In this document: positions 2,843 through 32,572 of the stretch, piece after piece | Layout of the letters: every line of letters begins with the position of its first letter | How positions within the stretch are numbered: position 1 is the first letter of the stretch | IMG/VR virus record: IMGVR_UViG_3300027980_000078 | Coordinates: 1 to 32,574 of that record | Length of the DNA stretch: 32,574 nucleotides | Reading direction: 5' to 3' (one strand) | DNA from: a virus | Taxonomy: Duplodnaviria; Caudoviricetes | Notes under the pieces: model-generated | What the model was told of the DNA's origin: nothing | Seen by the model: only the letters and a program-made list of their open reading frames with translations | Database searches by the model: none | Translations under genes and position numbers: made by a program

Positions 2843-4522
2843 CTATATTAAATTTTGATATGTTTTTATTTTACCTTCTGTACTACTCATTCTATACAAT
2901 GTTTTGTACTTTTTTATATCCTCTTGCGTAAACGTAGGACTAGGCTCATAAGCAAATAGCTTTAACTTATTCTCTGGGAGTTTTACGGAGTAATGGAAAG
3001 AGTCAAGGTATGGGTATTTAATTTCCCTACTTACAATATTAAACAGCCTTAATTCTTGCATAGAAGCAACTTTTTTTCCGTTTAACATCCAACTAGAAGA
3101 TGTCCCCCTAACCTGATGGCTTCTATATAGGTAGTTGTTTTTAATAGCCCACTCTTTAAAAACTTCTCTACTCGCTTGTGAGCCATATATCCTATCCATA
3201 ACATTAAATTTCTTTCCCTTGTATTTCGGATTCTCACTTTTTATATTTTCCCATAACAAGGCTCTTCCGATGATTAAGTCTTTTTTCTCAGAATAAAGGA
3301 TTAATAACTTAGTATTCTTAACAAGCATATCTAAAAAAGGTGCGCAAGTATCATATCGTAAACAACTACTACCTAGTGAGTCTACGTTTTTTGAAGAATC
3401 ATAACGACGATAATTATAATACTTTATAATATCACTTCCTGATACAATTTTTAACTCGTGTTCAGGGGGAGCTGCCATCTTATGTAAAATAACCTCTTTA
3501 ATCTTTTCATATCCTTTTGGGTCACTATCATAATTCCTAGCAACTCCAAGAACCCTCATAAGCAAATCAACTCCTTTCCCTGGTCTTATAGAGTGGGTTT
3601 TCGCTCCTATATTATAATCAATAAGCTTAGTATCGTGGTTGTAAGTAAATTTATGTGGTAAAAATGAGGGTATTTTTTTGTTTCCTATTAATCGGTCTAC
3701 TTCATCGTTGCTATGAATTTTCTGGCTTGTCGTTGATATTATTGAGTTAAACTGTTCTATTGCTGAGTGTTTTACAATATATTTAAGGACTTTTCTTGAA
3801 TATATCGCTGCTTGAGTATCTATCGTTGTATATTCATAATCACTAATTATAAAATTATTCGAATAATTATCATTACTAAAAGCCCTGCGCCTAGCATAAA
3901 AATTTCCGCCTTTAACAAACACTACATCCTTTTGGTCGGTTTCTTCAAAAGCATTTTTTCTTAACGCCTTTATAGAAAACAATAGTTTTTTGTACATTTC
4001 TTCTCTTTTAGGCTCTTTGTCCATTTTAGCAACCAACCTAGAAACATTGAATAGGTTTTTCTTTTTAAAACGAAACATCACTCCCTCGTCTTTTAAATAG
4101 CTAATTAGCTTCCCTGTATTCTTGCTTGTTCTCGACGCATAAGGAGAGATTTTAAAATAATATGGGTTATCTCTAACAGGCTCAATTATTGGTATATCCC
4201 CAAAAAATAAACATCCGTTATTAACTCTAATGGTTCTTGTTATACCAGAATCATACCTATTATAATCTAAATTATTCTCACGAAGATTTGTAATATAATA
4301 AAGATAGTTTTTTATAAGACTCTTCCTTTTAAGGGCTTCTGAAATAAGATCAGGCTCTTTAATTTCTACAACACCATCTTCCTTTCTAAGACTTATCTTT
4401 ATTTTTTCGATATCTGTAACTTCAGGAATATCTATAAAAGAGGTACACGAAAATTCTTCTAATCGTATAAGTTCTTCTGAGAGGTTTAAATTAGTTCCTA
4501 TACGTCTTCTTATTGTTGGCAT
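2843..4522 (-). CDS. Large phage protein with C-terminal SC(L/M)R...GRALLW...MDRIY...YPYLD domain
   Basis: 559 aa; recalled as a recurrent phage domain of unknown function. Confidence 0.7.
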   Translation of the reverse strand: MPTIRRRIGTNLNLSEELIRLEEFSCTSFIDIPEVTDIEKIKISLRKEDGVVEIKEPDLISEALKRKSLIKNYLYYITNLRENNLDYNRYDSGITRTIRVNNGCLFFGDIPIIEPVRDNPYYFKISPYASRTSKNTGKLISYLKDEGVMFRFKKKNLFNVSRLVAKMDKEPKREEMYKKLLFSIKALRKNAFEETDQKDVVFVKGGNFYARRRAFSNDNYSNNFIISDYEYTTIDTQAAIYSRKVLKYIVKHSAIEQFNSIISTTSQKIHSNDEVDRLIGNKKIPSFLPHKFTYNHDTKLIDYNIGAKTHSIRPGKGVDLLMRVLGVARNYDSDPKGYEKIKEVILHKMAAPPEHELKIVSGSDIIKYYNYRRYDSSKNVDSLGSSCLRYDTCAPFLDMLVKNTKLLILYSEKKDLIIGRALLWENIKSENPKYKGKKFNVMDRIYGSQASREVFKEWAIKNNYLYRSHQVRGTSSSWMLNGKKVASMQELRLFNIVSREIKYPYLDSFHYSVKLPENKLKLFAYEPSPTFTQEDIKKYKTLYRMSSTEGKIKTYQNLI

Positions 4523-4550
4523 CTTTCCTTTTGTTTTTTATTCAACTATA

Positions 4551-4581
4551 CAAACCTATATAAATATTATTGTAGGGCGAA
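4551..4581 (-). promoter_or_regulatory. Bacteroidetes-type sigmaA promoter for the leftward operon
   Basis: Minus strand TTCG-N19-TAGGTTTG (consensus TTTG-N19-21-TAnnTTTG), about 30 nt upstream of ATG at 4522. Confidence 0.55.
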
Positions 4582-4615
4582 GAAGTTGTGAGTTTTTTTG
4601 TCAGGCTTTTGAGGA

Positions 4616-4680
4616 GTTTTTTAACGAGATGCCCCCTCCCTTTTTTCTCCTGTTTTTTAACGAGATAGACCCCCTCTTTT
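4616..4680. repeat. Two direct repeats GTTTTTTAACGAGAT...CCCCCTC
   Basis: 15-bp identical cores at 4616-4630 and 4652-4666, each followed by CCCCCTC and a T run. Confidence 0.8.
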
Positions 4681-4756
4681 ATCATTGAATCAAAAACCAA
4701 CTCTAGAGATAGAGCATATATGGGCTTGGTTGCAAATGTCAGAAGGGCATCTAAAT

Positions 4757-4792
4757 AAAAAAGCCCCGCCAAAGAAGAACAGAAGCGGGGCT
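4757..4792 (-). terminator. Intrinsic terminator-like hairpin
   Basis: AGCCCCGC (4762-4769) / GCGGGGCT (4785-4792), 15-nt loop, followed by a U run on the minus strand. Confidence 0.5.
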
Positions 4793-5111
4793 GGACAAAA
4801 AACCAACTAGCACCAAATTTAAAAATAGGGGAGAAAATAATAATTTCAGTTACTTTTTTCAATACCTTAATATTTAACCGCAAATTAGTAAAGCCCCAAA
4901 ATAACCAATAATTTATATGTATATTTTTGACAGGTAGATGTAGATGCCCACCGATATATCAGGAAATTATCAGGCATTTTGTCAGTTTTTTTACATAACT
5001 CACCCAAAAATAAAAACAACAAAATAACAGCTAAAAAACCAACTAACTCCCTAATATATAGTAAGTTACTTATTTAGAACGAATATAAATTAAAAAAAAT
5101 TTTAGTAATTA

Positions 5112-5142
5112 TTTGGTATATTACAATAGTTTACTATCTTTG
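5112..5142 (+). promoter_or_regulatory. Bacteroidetes-type sigmaA promoter
   Basis: TTTG (5112-5115)-N19-TATCTTTG (5135-5142), consensus match with A-rich upstream tract. Confidence 0.75.
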
Positions 5143-5200
5143 TATTGTTGTTAGTCGTTAAAGACGCAACAAATTAAAGTTCAATTTAAAACCTATTAAA

Positions 5201-5830
5201 ATGAAAAATGCAAAAAATCTAGACGCAAACACAAAAGAGTCTAAAGTACAAAAAGCAAAAGCTGTAAAAGAAAACAGCAAAAAAGAAACTCCAGAAAAGG
5301 AGCAAAAGCCAAAAGGGCAGAAAGTTTTTAACTTTACAATCCCTACAAGCTGGTCGAAAGAGTTGGCTATATTTAAGGAGGTCGTTTCTGAGTATAGAGG
5401 GCGCAAAGTAGACTTTAAAACCCTATTTGCAAAAGCAAAAGAGTTAAGGAACAACCCGAAATATGACCTAAAACCATGGAGCGAATTATCGGCAAATACT
5501 GGCCGTAACTTCGAGAATAGGTTGAGCCGATTCTTAGGTGGTACAATAGAACGTGGGTTCTATAAGCAATCAAAACAAGCGCAGTATTTCAATATCCAAG
5601 TATGGACAGGTCAAACTTGCTCGTTCTCAACACCAATAGACCCCACGGTAAACCTAAGCCCACAGGTTAAGGCAGAAGGGCAATCAATTACAATACCAAA
5701 GAGAAAACTACAACGTGTAGCTGAGGTAATTACAAAAGAGTCCGTAAATCCTGAGTTTCTTCAAAGACTCCAAAACCCAAAAACTGAGGAGAAAAAAGAG
5801 GAAACCACAACCGAACAAACTCCAGCGTAA
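5201..5830 (+). CDS. Basic hypothetical protein, candidate immediate-early gene
   Basis: 209 aa, Lys/Glu-rich termini, own promoter and downstream hairpin. Confidence 0.8.
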   Translation: MKNAKNLDANTKESKVQKAKAVKENSKKETPEKEQKPKGQKVFNFTIPTSWSKELAIFKEVVSEYRGRKVDFKTLFAKAKELRNNPKYDLKPWSELSANTGRNFENRLSRFLGGTIERGFYKQSKQAQYFNIQVWTGQTCSFSTPIDPTVNLSPQVKAEGQSITIPKRKLQRVAEVITKESVNPEFLQRLQNPKTEEKKEETTTEQTPA

Positions 5831-5846
5831 ATAGAAACAAGTAACC

Positions 5847-5874
5847 GCCCCTGGCACAACTCGTCAGGGGCTTT
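5847..5874 (+). terminator. GC-rich hairpin (weak terminator or processing stem)
   Basis: GCCCCTGGC/GTCAGGGGC stem, only TTT afterwards. Confidence 0.5.
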
Positions 5875-5888
5875 AAAACCCAAATATT

Positions 5889-6017
5889 ATGAAAAACTCA
5901 ATTTTAACCAAGAAAGAAAAAGTATACCTAGCCTTAATAGCGTTTAACGCTTCCTTATTAGCGACTTCTTTAATAGTCTTTACAATCGATATAGTTGCCA
6001 ATATTATAACGGCTTAA
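5889..6017 (+). CDS. 42-aa single-pass membrane peptide
   Basis: Hand translation MKNSILTKKEKVYLALIAFNASLLATSLIVFTIDIVANIITA; lies between two hairpins. Confidence 0.65.
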   Translation: MKNSILTKKEKVYLALIAFNASLLATSLIVFTIDIVANIITA

Positions 6018-6036
6018 AACAACTCAAATACAATAT

Positions 6037-6066
6037 ATCCCTGTCTTTAATTAGACGGGGATTTTT
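6037..6066 (+). terminator. Intrinsic terminator
   Basis: ATCCCTGTCT/AGACGGGGAT stem followed by T run. Confidence 0.8.
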
Positions 6067-6177
6067 ATGTTAAAAAATAGGGAGGGGGGGGGTCGGGCTA
6101 TACTCCTGCAAATGCCCCATTTTTGAATCATAGGCACGAATCGCCCATTTCGGGGAGACATTCCATTGTTATATTAA

Positions 6178-6497
6178 TTGTAACAGGTTTGTAACAGATT
6201 TGTAACAGGTTAGTGAGTAGTGTTTACGGTGGTTTATCTATATATTGTTACTTTGTTACATTTTTTAAATAATAAATAGATAGAAACTCTCTTTGTGGGA
6301 GTTATAGCGGAGGTTACGATTTGGGTGTAACATGTAACAAAAAGTTACGTGGTTGTTTTTTAGGGAGTTGCGTGTTACAAACCTGTTTTTTTGTTACAAA
6401 TTTTGGTTATGTTTTTGTGTTGTCCAGCACGGTTGCGTGGGATAATGGCCACTTTTCCTGTTGTTCTTGTGGTTTTTTGTGGGAATAAGGTGTAACA
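6178..6497. repeat. GTAAC/GTTAC iteron-like array, candidate replication origin
   Basis: Three tandem 11-mers TTGTAACAG(G/A)T at 6178-6210; about 12 GTAAC/GTTAC copies in both orientations; perfect 15-bp inverted repeat 6182-6196 / 6373-6387. Confidence 0.75.
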
Positions 6498-6652
6498 TTA
6501 GCATTTGCTGTTATTTTCTTGTGTTATCATCGCTGTTTAACTTTCATCCATCGCTGTCAATGTTCTCTTTTGTGAGTTATTTTTTGATATGCCCATATAA
6601 TCTTATCGAGTTCTTTTTTTCCATTGGCGGTAGAAAAAAGATACATTAGGAT

Positions 6653-6683
6653 TTTGAAGTAAAGAAGGGAATTTGTAGGTTTG
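6653..6683 (+). promoter_or_regulatory. Bacteroidetes-type sigmaA promoter for the rightward operon
   Basis: TTTG (6653-6656)-N19-TAGGTTTG (6676-6683). Confidence 0.7.
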
Positions 6684-6711
6684 AAGGTATTATAATAATA
6701 AAATATATATT

Positions 6712-7774: not shown

Positions 7775-8404
7775 ATGAGCAAAACAAAGATTTCGATTCA
7801 TCGGGCTTTAACGGAGCTAAAGGTTATTGATGACAGGATAAGAAAAAAGATTGAGGCATTTTCTCCTGTTGGAATATACAAAAAAGACAAAAAGGTAAAC
7901 GAGGTGCATACCGTAGATGAGTTTAACAAACAGGTTAAATCTTCTTATGAGTCTATTGACGCTTTAATAGATAGGAAGTTTATGTTAAAGTCTCTTATTG
8001 CTGTATCTAATTCAATAACTAAGGTAGTTATATTAGGTAATGAAGTTACGGTAACTGAAGCGATTGTTATAAAAGACATAATTGAGCAAAAGAGGTTTCT
8101 TAGAAATCATATTTCAAAAGCCTATAACCACTCTTTATCTAATATAGAGCAAATAAACACCAAAGTTGATAAAAACGCATTAAGTCTAGGTGAGGCAGCT
8201 GTTGGTGGCGACAAAGACAACCTCAAAAAAAATGAGGTTGAGGCAATTATGGAAACATATATTGAAAACAATAAGGTTAGATTAGCAGACCCCTTAGATG
8301 TTGTTAATGAGATAAGTAAGATAGATAAGAAAATAAACGACTTCGCAGACAATATTGATTCTGTTTTATCTGAATCTAACGCAACAACGTTCATTGAATT
8401 ATAA
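7775..8404 (+). CDS. Helical/coiled-coil protein, tentatively DIP1984-like
   Basis: N-terminal ISIHRALTELKVIDDRI, central VTVTEAI, C-terminal DPL...IDSVLSESNATTFIEL; family call from memory. Confidence 0.7.
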   Translation: MSKTKISIHRALTELKVIDDRIRKKIEAFSPVGIYKKDKKVNEVHTVDEFNKQVKSSYESIDALIDRKFMLKSLIAVSNSITKVVILGNEVTVTEAIVIKDIIEQKRFLRNHISKAYNHSLSNIEQINTKVDKNALSLGEAAVGGDKDNLKKNEVEAIMETYIENNKVRLADPLDVVNEISKIDKKINDFADNIDSVLSESNATTFIEL

Positions 8405-8515
8405 CAATATTATATCGGAGTGCGTGAAGGCTCTAAATGTAATTCCTTTCTTATTAGGTTAAATAAGACTTTAAATAAATCAATACTGTAAATATTGAAT
8501 TAGACTTTTGCTAAA

Positions 8516-8587
8516 CGAGGTGTCACTAGTTCGATTCTAGTACGCTCCTTATATATTGGAGCGTTAGCTCAGTAGGTAGAGCATTCG
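8516..8587 (+). ncRNA. Circularly permuted tRNA-like domain (T arm, loop-closed acceptor stem, D arm), YrlA-like topology
   Basis: ACTAG-TTCGATT-CTAGT T arm; ACGCTCC-ttatatatt-GGAGCGT acceptor hairpin; TA-GCTC-AGTAGGTA-GAGC-A D arm; TTCG/CGAG anticodon-stem equivalent. Confidence 0.85.
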
Positions 8588-8601
8588 GTGCCTATAATTA
8601 C

Positions 8602-8687
8602 TTCAAAGCTAAACGCTTAATGATTAAAGTTTATTTATTAAATGTTAAAGGTATTTTTTATTAAAGCTGAAAGACTAAAGAAAAAGG
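8602..8687 (+). repeat. Phased 7-nt degenerate repeat, consensus NTTAAAG
   Basis: TTCAAAG CTAAACG CTTAATG ATTAAAG TTTATTT ATTAAAT GTTAAAG [GTATTTTTT] ATTAAAG CTGAAAG ACTAAAG AAAAAGG. Confidence 0.75.
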
Positions 8688-8771
8688 TTTATAAAATCCT
8701 GGATAAAAGTTAAGGGTAATTACTCCCGTGAGTTTGTACCAGGCTGCGCACTCTGATTAAATTAATAGATT

Positions 8772-9032
8772 ATGATAAAAATAGATGATATACGAAAGAC
8801 GATTACTGGTAAATCTAAATATGCTAGAAAAGTAAAGGACAGGGAATTTAGATACCGTGTGTTAAATACTCCTTTATTTGGAGATATAACAATAGACGAG
8901 ACAGAGTCTGAATTTGATTTTTGGAAGAAAATATATAATAAAGCATATATTGAGGGATTAGAGGATGGGAAGAATTTACGGTCTGAACAAATACGAAACT
9001 TAATATTTCCAAACATTAAAGATATAGGATGA
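8772..9032 (+). CDS. Hypothetical protein
   Basis: 86 aa; AYIEGLEDGK motif common in small phage proteins. Confidence 0.65.
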   Translation: MIKIDDIRKTITGKSKYARKVKDREFRYRVLNTPLFGDITIDETESEFDFWKKIYNKAYIEGLEDGKNLRSEQIRNLIFPNIKDIG

Positions 9033-29041: not shown

Positions 29042-30280
29042 CTATACTGCGGTAATAGCAGCTTGAACAACAGAAATATCATCATAGATAAGAGCTGCTT
29101 GGTCTAGATTTTTTACAAATGCAAAATAACGAGACTCACCTACCATCGTGAATTTATTGGTAATCAACTGATCATTAATCCAACCTATTCTAATGCTAAA
29201 TGGTACGTAGTTTATAACATTATAAACTGACATATCAGCTACAAATATTTTACCAGCTGGAATTTTAATCCATGGTACAATCCTAACTCCACCAATTCGT
29301 ACTTCGTTGAAGAGACCAGCTTGTGGGTATAATGGAAGTCCGTTGTCATCCTTAGCACCTACAAGGTTAATAAAGAAGTCAACTGGATTTATCATAACAA
29401 CATTTGGCTGATAATGTCCCTGATCGGTAAAAGCTTGAGTTGTGTAAATATCAGTAATACAAGCATTAACAACATCCATAAAGTTAGATGTTCCTGCTGG
29501 GAAAACATCCGCCATACTTCCTGCAACAAAAGCACGACCATATTCGGTAGCACCTGTTGGGCTAGAGCCAGTTCCATCTGCGAAATAAACAGCATTTACT
29601 TTATGTAAATTGTGTTGTTTAAGCAAATAGTCTTTTGCTGTTGCTTCCATACGAACAATATCCGTAGCAGCCTCTTCTGTTAGGATTTCATAAGCAGCAG
29701 CCTTAACAGGGTTTGCAAACCTATTTTCCCATTTAAAGTCAATTTGAGGTTTAGCTGCTCCTTCAGCAACAAAAGCATAACCACCTTCTTTCGGCAACAT
29801 TTCTGTATAAGAATATAGTTGCGTCCCAGTAGAGCTAATAGTAGCTAAAGAAAGTAAACTATCATCATTTCTAAGGTTAAAACCCCCTAGATTTGTATGC
29901 CAATTTACATCTGGAGTTCCTACTTCAGTCCCACTAGCTGTCGTTACATCTGCAACTGCTTTAGGGATAAACTCAATACTACCAGACCCTTTTTGATATA
30001 GGTCTTTAATCTCTCCTTCTTTTTCAGTAAGGAACGACTTAAATTGAGCAACCACACCTTCAACTTGCTTCTTTTTGTTGGCTTCTATAAAAGCCTCAAT
30101 AGCATTTCCGCTTTTTTCAATTTCCAGAGAAATTGCTTTAAGCTCTTCTTTTGTTGCACCTTTCGCTTGTAATTCAGCTAAGGTGTTTTGAGCTTCTTCA
30201 AACTTGGTGTTTAAGTCTTTAAACTTAGCTTCCAAAGCTTCTGTAAATTTTTCCATTTTGAAAATTCTATAATTAAACAT
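29042..30280 (-). CDS. Major capsid protein, HK97 fold with N-terminal coiled-coil scaffold domain (start probably ATG at 30256)
   Basis: FVAEGAAKPQ, DGTGSSPTG, VMINPVDF, KDDNGLPLYP, IPAGKIFVADMS. Confidence 0.95.
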   Translation of the reverse strand: MFNYRIFKMEKFTEALEAKFKDLNTKFEEAQNTLAELQAKGATKEELKAISLEIEKSGNAIEAFIEANKKKQVEGVVAQFKSFLTEKEGEIKDLYQKGSGSIEFIPKAVADVTTASGTEVGTPDVNWHTNLGGFNLRNDDSLLSLATISSTGTQLYSYTEMLPKEGGYAFVAEGAAKPQIDFKWENRFANPVKAAAYEILTEEAATDIVRMEATAKDYLLKQHNLHKVNAVYFADGTGSSPTGATEYGRAFVAGSMADVFPAGTSNFMDVVNACITDIYTTQAFTDQGHYQPNVVMINPVDFFINLVGAKDDNGLPLYPQAGLFNEVRIGGVRIVPWIKIPAGKIFVADMSVYNVINYVPFSIRIGWINDQLITNKFTMVGESRYFAFVKNLDQAALIYDDISVVQAAITAV

Positions 30281-30289
30281 TAATTTATT

Positions 30290-30341
30290 GAGAGTGTAAT
30301 ATACGGCTCTCTTTTTTTACAGAGTGATTGCTCGGCTCTGT
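30290..30341 (-). promoter_or_regulatory. Two tandem hairpins with a CC/A internal loop in the capsid leader
   Basis: Minus strand ACAGAG-CC-GA-GCAA-TC-A-CTCTGT and GAGAG-CC-GTA-TAT-TAC-A-CTCTC. Confidence 0.65.
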
Positions 30342-31117
30342 TATTCTTCTATTTCAAGCCATTTTAAAATAGCTTTATCTTTTTCACTATAAGTGAAATC
30401 TTTATTTTTATTATTTAATGTTGGAGTAAACCTGTTGCTCCCAAGAACAACAGCACTACCTTCAATAACTTTAGCCTCTGTAACAACCCAAAAGTATTTT
30501 TCATTAGCTAAATCTTCTTTATTTGCTATTCTTTCATAGTATTTATCCCATACCTTCTTTTCCTCTTCATAGTCCTCTTCTTCTGAATTAATAGCTAATA
30601 GTATTTTAACGTATTGCATGCCAACAGAATGATTATCTACATTTAGATTTTTGTATTGATTATACATATACGAGTTTCTTTCTTCCTTTATTGTAGCATC
30701 AAAAACTAAAGCCTCAGTAGAACCTTCCATATCAAATCCTAAAGACTTCCACGTAAGTTTACTTGCCTTAACAGACAAATCCTCTTTGTCTGCTATAATT
30801 TTATCAAATTTCATTTGATGTTCTTGTAGAAACTTTATGTTTCTATTTTCACTCAAAGACTTATCCCATATACCATTTACATGTAAATCTTTGTGCGAGT
30901 CTACAACATTTGTTGTATTAATTATCGCTCTAACTTTTATAGAGCCATCCTCATTTTGTTCTGCTTTATTAGCTATTGTTGAGGTTAGAACAGTTGTTGT
31001 TAATCCTATCGGGTCAGAGAACTTTATTGCAGACTTTTTAGAATATATAATATCCTGTTTATTTTCTACAAGAAACTTTAATAGTTCATTCCCTTTAAGT
31101 TCTGTTGGTATTTTCAT
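30341..31117 (-). CDS. HK97-type prohead protease
   Basis: DSHKD, LQEHQM (His), NHSVGM (Ser), EGSAVVLGSNRFTP; lies between portal and capsid. Confidence 0.85.
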   Translation of the reverse strand: MKIPTELKGNELLKFLVENKQDIIYSKKSAIKFSDPIGLTTTVLTSTIANKAEQNEDGSIKVRAIINTTNVVDSHKDLHVNGIWDKSLSENRNIKFLQEHQMKFDKIIADKEDLSVKASKLTWKSLGFDMEGSTEALVFDATIKEERNSYMYNQYKNLNVDNHSVGMQYVKILLAINSEEEDYEEEKKVWDKYYERIANKEDLANEKYFWVVTEAKVIEGSAVVLGSNRFTPTLNNKNKDFTYSEKDKAILKWLEIEE

Positions 31118-31119
31118 CT

Positions 31120-31257
31120 TTACCCTGTTTTTATAATAGTCCTTTCTTCTTTTAACGCAGAAAGTTTGTTTTTTAATGATTTCTTTAGGCTAGGGTCTAA
31201 ATTTGGTCTAGACAATGTTTCTTCTATGTTTTTGATTATCTCCTTCTTTGTTCCCAT
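31120..31257 (-). CDS. 45-aa basic protein
   Basis: Hand translation MGTKKEIIKNIEETLSRPNLDPSLKKSLKNKLSALKEERTIIKTG; ends 2 nt before the protease start. Confidence 0.6.
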   Translation of the reverse strand: MGTKKEIIKNIEETLSRPNLDPSLKKSLKNKLSALKEERTIIKTG

Positions 31258-31360
31258 TGCTTGTGTTTTTTACCTCTTACTTCTATAATATGAGTTACGT
31301 ATATAGGAAGACCAACTATATTGACTCCTGTTTGATAACTAACTTTTTTTATGCCTTTTT

Positions 31361-32572
31361 TCATTGTGTTAGTTGAGAAACTAATTCTGTTATTTTTTCT
31401 TCTTGCTCTTCAGTTAAATTGTTTTCTTCGCCTTGTTGACCAATAAGCTGAGTTAGTTCATTTAACTTGATTCCTTTTTCAAATCCAAGAAGCTCTAATG
31501 CTATTTCATCTGGCAAACCAGCCGACCTAAGAATACTTAACGCCTCTCCTCGTGTTTTTTGAACTTCATATTTTGTTTTCTCAAACTCAATCATTACTGG
31601 CATGTGAGAAAAACTACTCCTAAACTCATATCCGTCCTCCAATAAGCCATTTGACAAACTAGCCATAATACTATTAGCCGTAGACTGCATATCGTTTTGA
31701 ATATACGAAACTAGACTTTGATTGGCATTTTTGTAAGTTGATTTTTCGCCTGATATCGAATAAACATCATTAGGAAGATGTAGTCCTGTAAAAATTATAG
31801 ACGCATCCGTTTTGATTCCCTCATCATGACCTAAGTCTCTCATAATTAAATGTAGTGATTGCCATTTTAATGATGCGTTTGTTATAATTCCTCTTTTTCT
31901 CGTATTGGCTAATCCGTAATTATTAGCCCATCGCTCTTCAATTTTTTCTTTTTCGTCTGGTTTTAATGGAAATCCGTCTTTCGCTCCTGAAATTAGCTCT
32001 TTGCCATTAGACCTTATAATAATGCTTTTCGCTATAATACTATCTTGTGTATTAAAGAGAGTTTTTTTCATTCCGTCAATCCTACTAGCAGTATTAAATG
32101 GGTTTTTTGGGTCTACGTTATTTGGTAAGTCGTAGAAAAATATCAGGTCTTTTAAGTTTATTTTTATGTTTTCGTTGTCTTTGTCATAAACAACAACAGT
32201 GTTTAATAGTTCGTTTGTTCTAGATGCGTTGAGTAAATTTCCTTTTTTTATAGAATCAGGAAATTCAATTAAATTATAGTTTAAGACATATAAAGAATTT
32301 GGTTTCGTTCTTCCGTATGTTCTTTTTTTGTATATAACACCAACTCCATTCGCTATTGTTGTGAAGATTAAACTCTCTAGTAAGTCTGGGAGGGTTTGTG
32401 ACCAGTTTGGTTTTTTTAACAAAGCATAAGCTTCGTGATTATTAAAAACCTTCTTGTTAGATGAGTTTATTACATCTATTTGTGTTTGGGAGAATAGTTT
32501 TGCTATAAATAAAAGGGCTGGAGTAAGGATTGGGTGGGATAAACTTAATGATAAGTTGCTTGAGTTTTTTGA
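31361..32572 (-). CDS. Portal protein, 5' end outside window
   Basis: LLKKPNWSQT, SRIDG, STYKNANQS portal motifs; frame stays open from 32422 to the window edge. Confidence 0.9.
   Translation of the reverse strand, partial: SKNSSNLSLSLSHPILTPALLFIAKLFSQTQIDVINSSNKKVFNNHEAYALLKKPNWSQTLPDLLESLIFTTIANGVGVIYKKRTYGRTKPNSLYVLNYNLIEFPDSIKKGNLLNASRTNELLNTVVVYDKDNENIKINLKDLIFFYDLPNNVDPKNPFNTASRIDGMKKTLFNTQDSIIAKSIIIRSNGKELISGAKDGFPLKPDEKEKIEERWANNYGLANTRKRGIITNASLKWQSLHLIMRDLGHDEGIKTDASIIFTGLHLPNDVYSISGEKSTYKNANQSLVSYIQNDMQSTANSIMASLSNGLLEDGYEFRSSFSHMPVMIEFEKTKYEVQKTRGEALSILRSAGLPDEIALELLGFEKGIKLNELTQLIGQQGEENNLTEEQEEKITELVSQLTQ

Follow-up and report, generated by a model that had tools for sequence, protein, structure and literature searches.

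The locus described here borders on several known systems. DIP1984 (DUF6847, PF20935; profile NF038048), with 3KDQ as its solved structure, has the same fold as the protein of this locus over the whole chain. That protein belongs to PHROG_1491, is about 55 residues longer than members of the short DIP1984 family and, unlike them, is mostly phage borne. YrlA (RF02553) and its partner Ro60 (Rsr) likewise pair a protein gene with an RNA permuted in T-acceptor-D order; this order, the position of the Ro60 gene beside the Y RNA, and the phage cases are described in PMC4201824. In contrast to Ro60-YrlA, the present system has no TROVE protein, its RNA is three times longer and contains pseudoknots and a repeat tract, and the tRNA-like elbow is optional. 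Two-piece tmRNA shares pseudoknots and a permuted tRNA-like domain with this RNA. GOLLD, ROOL, and OLE often lie near tRNA arrays. They too are large structured phage or bacterial RNAs (PMC12286853), but the RNA studied here is less large, comes with a constant partner gene, includes a presumably single-stranded repeat tract, and gives no Rfam match.

The 86-nt RAGATH-27 model (RF03100) represents the 5' end of the RNA family considered here, namely, the 5' strand of closing helix P1, a CGAAA motif, and hairpin P5. Its Rfam structure consists of one hairpin, and the closing helix, repeat tract, 3' domain, and tRNA-like cargo are absent from it. RAGATH-27 is probably described in the supplement of PMC5737381, the main text of which does not contain the name. 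The openly readable literature on DIP1984, 3KDQ/DUF6847, T5.085, PHROG 1491, RAGATH-27, and YrlA in phages yielded no description of a gene-RNA module.

The window, i.e., the whole stretch of DNA that was analyzed, comprises 32,574 nt (positions 1 to 32,574 of IMG/VR record IMGVR_UViG_3300027980_000078; Duplodnaviria, Caudoviricetes), and its record is a tailed-phage fragment that is 31% complete. The portal, head, and tape-measure genes are located on the minus strand beyond 22 kb, and the 209-aa gene and its RNA sit in a plus-strand series of small, closely spaced genes. An initial annotation of the sequence had drawn attention to an unusually long gap behind this gene. Indeed, 367 nt separate the gene (ORF 7775-8404) from the next ORF (start at 8772), and the surrounding run has short gaps. 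The same window holds 880 nt upstream of the operon with short ORFs only (5831-6711) and a 559-aa ORF without a family match adjoining an M20/M28 peptidase (2843-4522). The features of the locus are as follows.

7775..8404, plus strand: gene for a helical protein of 209 aa, PHROG_1491, a long form of the DIP1984/DUF6847 fold and homolog of T5.085 (assigned by profile and fold)
8414..8757, plus strand: structured noncoding RNA of 344 nt, counted from one end of its closing helix to the other
8414..8424, plus strand: 5' strand of closing helix P1, pairing with 8747-8757 and followed by a conserved YGAA motif (8425-8428)
8428..8433, plus strand: 5' strand of P2, which pairs at long range with 8730-8735 and crosses P4, forming a pseudoknot
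8439..8444, plus strand: 5' strand of P3, whose partner strand 8718-8723 lies in the P6 loop, forming a pseudoknot
8445..8468, plus strand: PK1, pairing 8445-8447 with loop 8456-8458 of hairpin P5 (8449-8455/8462-8468)
8480..8498, plus strand: anticodon stem-loop mimic with 6 bp and a 7-nt loop, GUA (Tyr) at 8488-8490
8518..8593, plus strand: circularly permuted tRNA elbow module (assigned by pattern and a partial YrlA match), with a T-arm (8525-8541), a loop-closed 7-bp acceptor-like stem (8542-8548/8558-8564; CCA not encoded), a D-arm (8567-8582), and a weak closing stem (8518-8524/8587-8593)
8605..8690, plus strand: heptamer tract, consensus AAAGNYY, with seven units (8605-8653), a 9-nt spacer (8654-8662), and four units (8663-8690)
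8694..8746, plus strand: 3' domain with an AAAUCC motif, P4 (8698-8702/8739-8743), P6 (8714-8716/8725-8727), and GGCUG (8742-8746)
8747..8757, plus strand: 3' strand of closing helix P1

The 209-aa protein matches the PHROG_1491 profile over its full length (residues 3 to 209; E value of 1.9e-49), and its predicted model is a long all-helical hairpin (pLDDT of 85). The best solved-structure match in VIA is 3KDQ (3kdq_A; Z of 12.0, rmsd of 4.4, 151 aligned residues), the sole chain with a Z of at least 8 among 48,161 and followed by a match at 7.7, with the caveat that Z values below approximately 13 can be common among helical proteins. 3KDQ is also the top Foldseek match (E value of 3.7e-3), and the ESM atlas likewise points to a DIP1984-like fold. 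The resemblance suggested in the initial annotation is thus borne out by fold; by sequence, the protein stays below the family threshold (NF038048, 14.5 bits versus a cutoff of 70), PF20935 matches only 2 of 72 family members, weakly, and Pfam and PDB sequence searches returned nothing useful. Neither family nor structure searches found a nuclease family or fold or a catalytic fold in the protein, and its other helical structure matches lie at background Z. The PHROG_1491 label "tail fiber" was rejected, as the model is a helical hairpin and not a fiber fold and the gene is surrounded by small genes of early type, with the virion genes encoded on the other strand. The T5 homolog, T5.085 (gene 085), is classed as "unknown/other" in the source data of PMC11879866. 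Relatives were found in 725 of 50,697 phage records, including T5-like, Bacillus, Clostridioides, Pseudomonas, Vibrio, and Lactococcus phages, and on chromosomes of Lysinibacillus and its kin. At E values up to 1e-10, the family comprises 2,826 clusters at 50% identity. One member, P0108 (474 aa), has three stretches that match the family profile and is possibly a tandem fusion of the domain.

The initial annotation had proposed a protein oligomer, of which a predicted homodimer stands. When four copies were modeled, the self-association score was 0.47 versus 0.00 for the best control, passing a mark that was reached by most solved pairs (20 of 30) but by a single one of 23 lone chains, with the proviso that a solved complex of this kind exists and the pass may reflect likeness to it. 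Contact agreement between runs was 87%, with a pLDDT of at least 79. The only confident interface in this model is that of a symmetric homodimer, and no assembly above the dimer was predicted with confidence. A conserved basic patch comprises R10, K16, R21, R67, K68, K72, and K100, and positions R21, K16, K72, and K100 are basic in 92 to 100% of 72 sequences.

The RNA elements named in the initial annotation were all found where expected: the 11-bp closing helix with one G-U pair, starting 9 nt past the stop codon; the 3' stem of CCTGG with CCAGG; and, in order, the hairpin at 8449-8468, the anticodon-like hairpin, the T-arm, the acceptor stem, and the D-arm. The 367-nt gap folds at -89.6 kcal/mol (z of -3.3), and 0 of 100 shuffled sequences folded as well. 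Three pseudoknot-forming pairings, P2, P3, and PK1, had been overlooked. In their presence, the nested minimum-energy fold represents only part of the structure, and the single-sequence fold was rejected as a model, since it is nested, lacks the pseudoknots, and assigns arbitrary partners to the tract. No promoter or terminator scored above chance at the edges of the RNA in the window.

A full-length Rfam match, which according to the initial annotation would remove the novelty of the RNA, was found neither in the window nor in 20 other loci. The window gave no match at gathering score, including to RAGATH-27, which reaches that score in 1 of 20 loci (L130; 81.4 bits versus 76.1) and in this clade accounts for the first 86 nt from the 5' end. 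The region modeled there corresponds to 8445-8468 plus the 5' strand of P1 in the window. Judged by synteny and motif rather than by score, the window RNA and RAGATH-27 belong to the same family. YrlA matches the window partially (8517-8586), and membership was rejected: the T-acceptor-D domain is present, but the score (29.5 bits versus a cutoff of 69) and the length (344 nt versus 80 to 130 nt) do not fit. A tmRNA was also rejected, as ARAGORN called none in the window or the loci and a stop-free 60-codon frame occurs in just 10 of 79 RNAs, with no conserved frame. ARAGORN called no tRNA in the window either, and without a cloverleaf a canonical tRNA gene was dismissed. RNase P RNA was set aside as well: no covariance-model match was obtained in the window, even at an E value of 10, or at gathering score in the 20 loci.

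The RNA accompanies the gene throughout the family. In all seven annotated phage regions examined, an unannotated gap of 360 to 640 nt lies 3' of the gene. In a first locus set, the 3' core was present in 142 of 151 loci; among the controls, it occurred in 1 of 38 upstream sequences and in 8 of 410 shuffled ones. The final set holds 373 loci, or 152 after dereplication, and its anchors are sequence motifs only, with no pairing criterion. Both anchors occur in 140 of the 152 loci; 11 of the remaining 12 match a covariance model of the 3' domain (E value below 1e-3), and the 12th is truncated by the contig end. The 3' domain therefore lies 3' of the gene in 151 of 152 loci, and the closed RNA proposed behind this protein is conserved behind nearly every homolog. 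The window itself scores 66.9 bits against the model, of which it is part. The reverse search, with a pattern for the RNA 3' end, returned 120 viral loci; the gene is located upstream in 74 of the 80 matches with at least 700 nt of upstream flank. Five of the six others resemble chance matches, and one (L162) is a real RNA. RNA length ranges from 240 to 473 nt in the final set (median, 342 nt), and the chromosomal Lysinibacillus and Sporosarcina copies are minimal. The gene and the downstream RNA are, on this sequence evidence, one inherited unit, and the RNA is probably the partner of the protein. Two loci deviate in layout: in L162, a long endonuclease-like ORF (7-1419) lies directly upstream of the tract, and in L466, two ORFs are inserted between the gene and the RNA (1843-2732).

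Downstream sequences of the homologs were aligned and tested for covariation, as the initial annotation had suggested, and the closing helix, the 3' stem, and two pseudoknot pairings covary. The inner six P1 pairs hold in 114 of 140 RNAs, versus 14.6 on average and 25 at most in chimeras, and in a set of 79 RNAs, cognate-versus-chimera tests and mutual information give z values of 19.9 for P2, 18.8 for P3, 8.8 for P4a, 5.6 for the weaker PK1, and 5.0 for P6, with controls at 1.9 and -0.2; the chimera and shuffle statistics behind all these figures take no account of phylogeny. The 79-RNA set was anchored by P1 and P4 complementarity, which makes it circular for those two helices; P2, P3, P4a, PK1, and P6 played no part in the anchoring. 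The window falls outside the strict motif-anchored set, its motif reading UGAAG. RNAalifold on 50 sequences recovered P4 and P6, and double changes at a single base pair reach 27 of 50. P1 contains 111 G-U versus 14 A-C combinations, indicating that the element acts as RNA on this strand. It is almost certainly a real structured RNA on this strand. P2 and P3 connect the 5' end with the inside of the 3' stem, so that the ends form a single knotted core and the middle becomes one big loop, which holds the variable region and the heptamer tract. Near-invariant YGAAA, AAAUCC, and GGCUG motifs converge at the P1/P2/P4 junction.

The phased heptamers and the AAAG-rich tract that the initial annotation expected behind similar genes are a family-wide feature. 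Lag-7 identity in the window is 0.64, compared to 0.33 in 5,000 shuffles, none of which was as high. Across the family, autocorrelation peaks at lags 7, 14, and 21 (+0.24, +0.23, and +0.21), and the variable region is flat. The tract parses well in 99 of 114 RNAs. Exactly 7 units, a spacer of 8 to 13 nt, and 4 or 5 further units are found in 67 of these 99, and 82 have 7 or 8 units plus 4 or 5. Unit scores lie between 4.8 and 6.9 at ranks 1 to 7 (6.4 at rank 7) and drop to -1.7 at rank 8. In single-sequence folds, pairing probability is only slightly lower in the tract than elsewhere (0.56 versus 0.61; lower in 56 of 79 RNAs), and the tract is presumed to be single stranded. A protein assembly of fixed size might be expected to select for such a tract, counted in units but loose in sequence.

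The region between P5 and the tract is free in sequence and carries tRNA-like cargo in part of the family. The mimics seen in the initial annotation are real, but they are optional. In the window, the cargo consists of the Tyr(GUA) loop and the permuted elbow. By pattern, 26 of 114 RNAs have a permuted T-acceptor-D module, one of which (L164) is false by acceptor score; 6 have a tRNA-like insert in canonical order, 11 have a T-arm only, 2 have a D-like arm only, and 69 have no elbow. At least 6 of the 7 acceptor pairs form in 22 of the 26 permuted modules, and 4 of the 26 encode NCCA (L009, L015, L023, and L310). These four are inserts with a 7-bp acceptor stem, and L023 additionally carries a D-arm and a Leu(UAG) anticodon arm (approximately 3250-3360), so that its RNA contains an almost complete permuted tRNA. 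In Mycobacterium smegmatis YrlA, an acceptor stem of 7 bp helps to determine cleavage by RNase P (PMC4201824); by analogy, the permuted module of the window could undergo RNase P-type processing. Anticodon stem-loops number 25 in 23 of 78 regions; 100 shuffles gave 3.5 ± 1.8, and the opposite strand gave 4. A larger set has 27 strict anticodon loops in 25 of 114 RNAs, mostly Ser (11) and Leu (5).

T5 allows the locus to be examined in a well-known phage. In L301, a record of T5 length, the prediction places the RNA on the minus strand at 1092-1442, and the stop codon of the gene ends at 1454. This stretch is present in 20 of 24 listed T5 RNA runs, and in all four that were examined it is assembled as contigs. 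In run X8, an adapter-joined contig ends at 1451, 3 nt past the stop codon, with a depth of 1,020 versus 328 for the gene contig, and a separate contig spans 1086-1420. Run X9, from another study, has an adapter end at 1101 and a break at 1064-1101. By contrast, runs X1 and X5 show one continuous contig without a boundary, and a contig runs through the gene and the RNA. The discrete transcript of about 345 nt posited in the initial annotation is therefore matched by contig ends in two runs and not in the other two. Discrete T5 RNA ends in 2 of 4 runs are a hint, in that contigs cannot show ends, strand, or level and the signal rests on these four runs. No joint inside the T5 RNA, as a sign of a circle, was seen in the contigs, which neither shows nor excludes a circle.

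In PMC11879866, knockdown of T5.085 is called "Not Fit," as for its neighbors, in keeping with what an accessory gene would give in a laboratory host. T5-like RNAs (T5 itself as L155, region 2772-2790; L295 to L306) carry a tRNA-Lys-like hairpin. In 9 of 10 contigs, position 33 of its loop is an A, and the T5 loop fails the anticodon-loop rule used here. According to PMC11464382, mutant T5-123 carries a deletion of 29191-32442 and is PARIS sensitive. The T5 module is located at 43.1 to 44.1 kb, outside this deletion, and is retained; the Lys-like hairpin is thus not a sufficient decoy for AriB. In L149, from a Salmonella phage, the loop is canonical, with a Lys(CUU) anticodon. A different RNA, the 719-nt stable T5 "rnaX," starts 1.5 kb downstream (L155, 4578-5026), and this part gives no Rfam match.

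The reading that we favor, tentatively and at slightly less than even confidence, is a protein-RNA scaffold in which a counted tract is combined with displayed tRNA mimics, probably as decoys. The RNA would probably be cut from the operon transcript just past the stop codon. As the comparison across the family shows, the closing helix and the three crossing pairings join the RNA ends into a compact core, and the large loop carries the variable region and the tract. Dimers of the protein likely bind the heptamers through the conserved basic patch, and it is conceivable, if doubtful, that the 11 to 12 heptamers serve about six dimers. The variable region would act as an exchangeable site that accepts elbows, anticodon loops, or an entire permuted tRNA, and the displayed mimics could perhaps soak up anticodon nucleases or other tRNA-binding defense or stress factors. 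With similar reserve, the system might represent a new RNP class, present in thousands of phage and bacterial lineages (T5 among them), in which a protein ring or cage of fixed size counts 11 to 12 heptamers on a double-pseudoknot RNA and displays tRNA mimics. Equally speculative is that its exchangeable cargo (elbow, anticodon loop, or permuted chargeable tRNA) would counter tRNA-targeting immunity or supply translation. The two-way linkage, the covariation, the sharp-edged tract, the predicted homodimer, the basic residues, the enrichment of anticodon loops, the permuted elbows, the "Not Fit" call of T5.085, and the contig ends in two T5 runs are all consistent with the scaffold favored here. 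The decoy function is harder to reconcile with the 69 of 114 RNAs without an elbow, strict anticodon loops in just 25 of 114, the A at position 33 of the T5 loop, and the PARIS sensitivity of T5-123. The Ser/Leu bias could not be tied to a known nuclease, which also counts against decoys. More than half of the family lacks a recognizable mimic, so that the core must have an activity of its own, the weak point of a decoy function; likewise, the chromosomal copies being minimal, whatever the conserved core does cannot depend on tRNA mimicry. Since tRNA genes are often near the loci, tRNA-like pieces could also be passive pickups.

Two other explanations appear rather improbable, each about half as credible as the scaffold. 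One is a tether resembling Ro60-Y RNA, in which the elbow holds repair or decay enzymes (RtcB, Pnkp, Rnl1, or PNPase) at damaged tRNA. The T-acceptor-D order agrees with YrlA, tRNA genes begin 6 to 12 nt past the closing helix in four loci (L002, L008, L138, and L139), and, as a raw count with no background rate subtracted, 5 of 34 loci (L004, L063, L070, L134, and L142) have an RtcB, Rnl1, or Pnkp-like gene at most 2.5 kb away. The neighbor check proposed with the initial annotation (rtcB, Ro60/TROVE, and PNK) thus found repair genes at some loci and TROVE at none. The scan covered the four longest flanking ORFs per locus (128 proteins), among which 29 of the 34 loci had no such repair neighbor; the 31%-complete record of the window contains no TROVE or RtcB, with no Ro60 gene within 4 kb, and most RNAs lack the elbow that would hold the enzymes. 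The other explanation is an RNA-held effector similar to a type III toxin-antitoxin system, in which the free protein is harmful or membrane active and the tract keeps it inactive. In a variant of comparable standing, loss of the RNA or cleavage of its tRNA-like part frees the protein, so that the RNA would sense tRNA damage. Obligate linkage and a counted tract would be expected here, minimal chromosomal copies without a mimic are accounted for, and short chromosomal DIP1984 genes also have a conserved downstream element. The protein, however, has no catalytic fold, and its top structural match is an uncharacterized protein. Type III antitoxins are upstream arrays of pseudoknots of about 35 nt, a layout that differs from the present one. 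Knockdown of T5.085 also gave no fitness call in PMC11879866.

A cis-acting 3' element on the mRNA, bound by the protein to control its own or downstream messages, is improbable to a greater degree. The element always lies directly downstream on the same strand, has no promoter or terminator above chance in the window, and in T5 shares one contig with the gene; the closing helix that joins the ends, the tRNA cargo, the adapter end 3 nt past the T5 stop codon, and the displacement in L466 fit a released RNA better. Still less credence is given to a catalytic RNA, with the pseudoknotted core as a ribozyme and the protein as its cofactor. The near-invariant nucleotides cluster at the P1/P2/P4 junction of a double pseudoknot, and the order P1-P2-P4-P2'-P4'-P1' appears to resemble the topology of RNase P RNA. 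The region inside P4, however, spans just 36 to 45 nt or so, and no ribozyme or RNase P model matched the window (E value of 10) or the 20 other loci at gathering score. A DNA-level element (origin or iterons) or chance remains of tRNA arrays is highly improbable: the repeats are A rich and 20 of 40 loci have a tRNA gene at a distance of up to 2.5 kb (one being the insert itself), but the excess of G-U over A-C and the long-range covariation argue for RNA, and a 7-nt period is unfit for the DNA helix.

The gene and RNA appear to constitute a widespread protein-RNA module, previously undescribed as far as the literature shows, for which the mechanism above is a proposal. The protein family is labeled "tail fiber" in many RefSeq records, and the RNA is unannotated even in T5; no system was found that matches a counted, presumably single-stranded tract on a knotted RNA with swappable tRNA parts. 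For 3KDQ, an orphan of structural genomics, the module suggests a ligand that can be tested, and it accounts for RAGATH-27 as a fragment of a larger RNA. If display holds true, it would provide an RNA-protein route in the phage-host conflict over tRNA and a natural RNA-display scaffold.

Short DIP1984 (NF038048) genes on Bacillota chromosomes (L278 to L288) have a conserved element of their own 200 to 250 nt past the stop codon. It has a GAGYRC/GYRCUG pair that covaries by eye, ends in GAGGGYGGG, and shows a 7-nt phase, if a weak one. None of 13 short-family loci matches the 3' model of the long RNA, and RNAalifold on 10 short-family sequences gave one weakly supported stem. Some loci of the long family have noteworthy surroundings. 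L134 has a Pnkp-phosphatase-ligase fusion directly upstream (199-2412) and a DUF2828/DUF7788 gene downstream (3887-5416), and L141 carries a RAGATH-36 RNA 1 kb upstream of the gene (1428-1560). In L017 and L024, the gene and RNA lie beside RING fingers, Got1/Sft2, and AP2-HNH, resembling neighbors in large eukaryotic DNA viruses, and a 425-kb contig filed under a Pacearchaeota assembly also carries the family (L016/L082).
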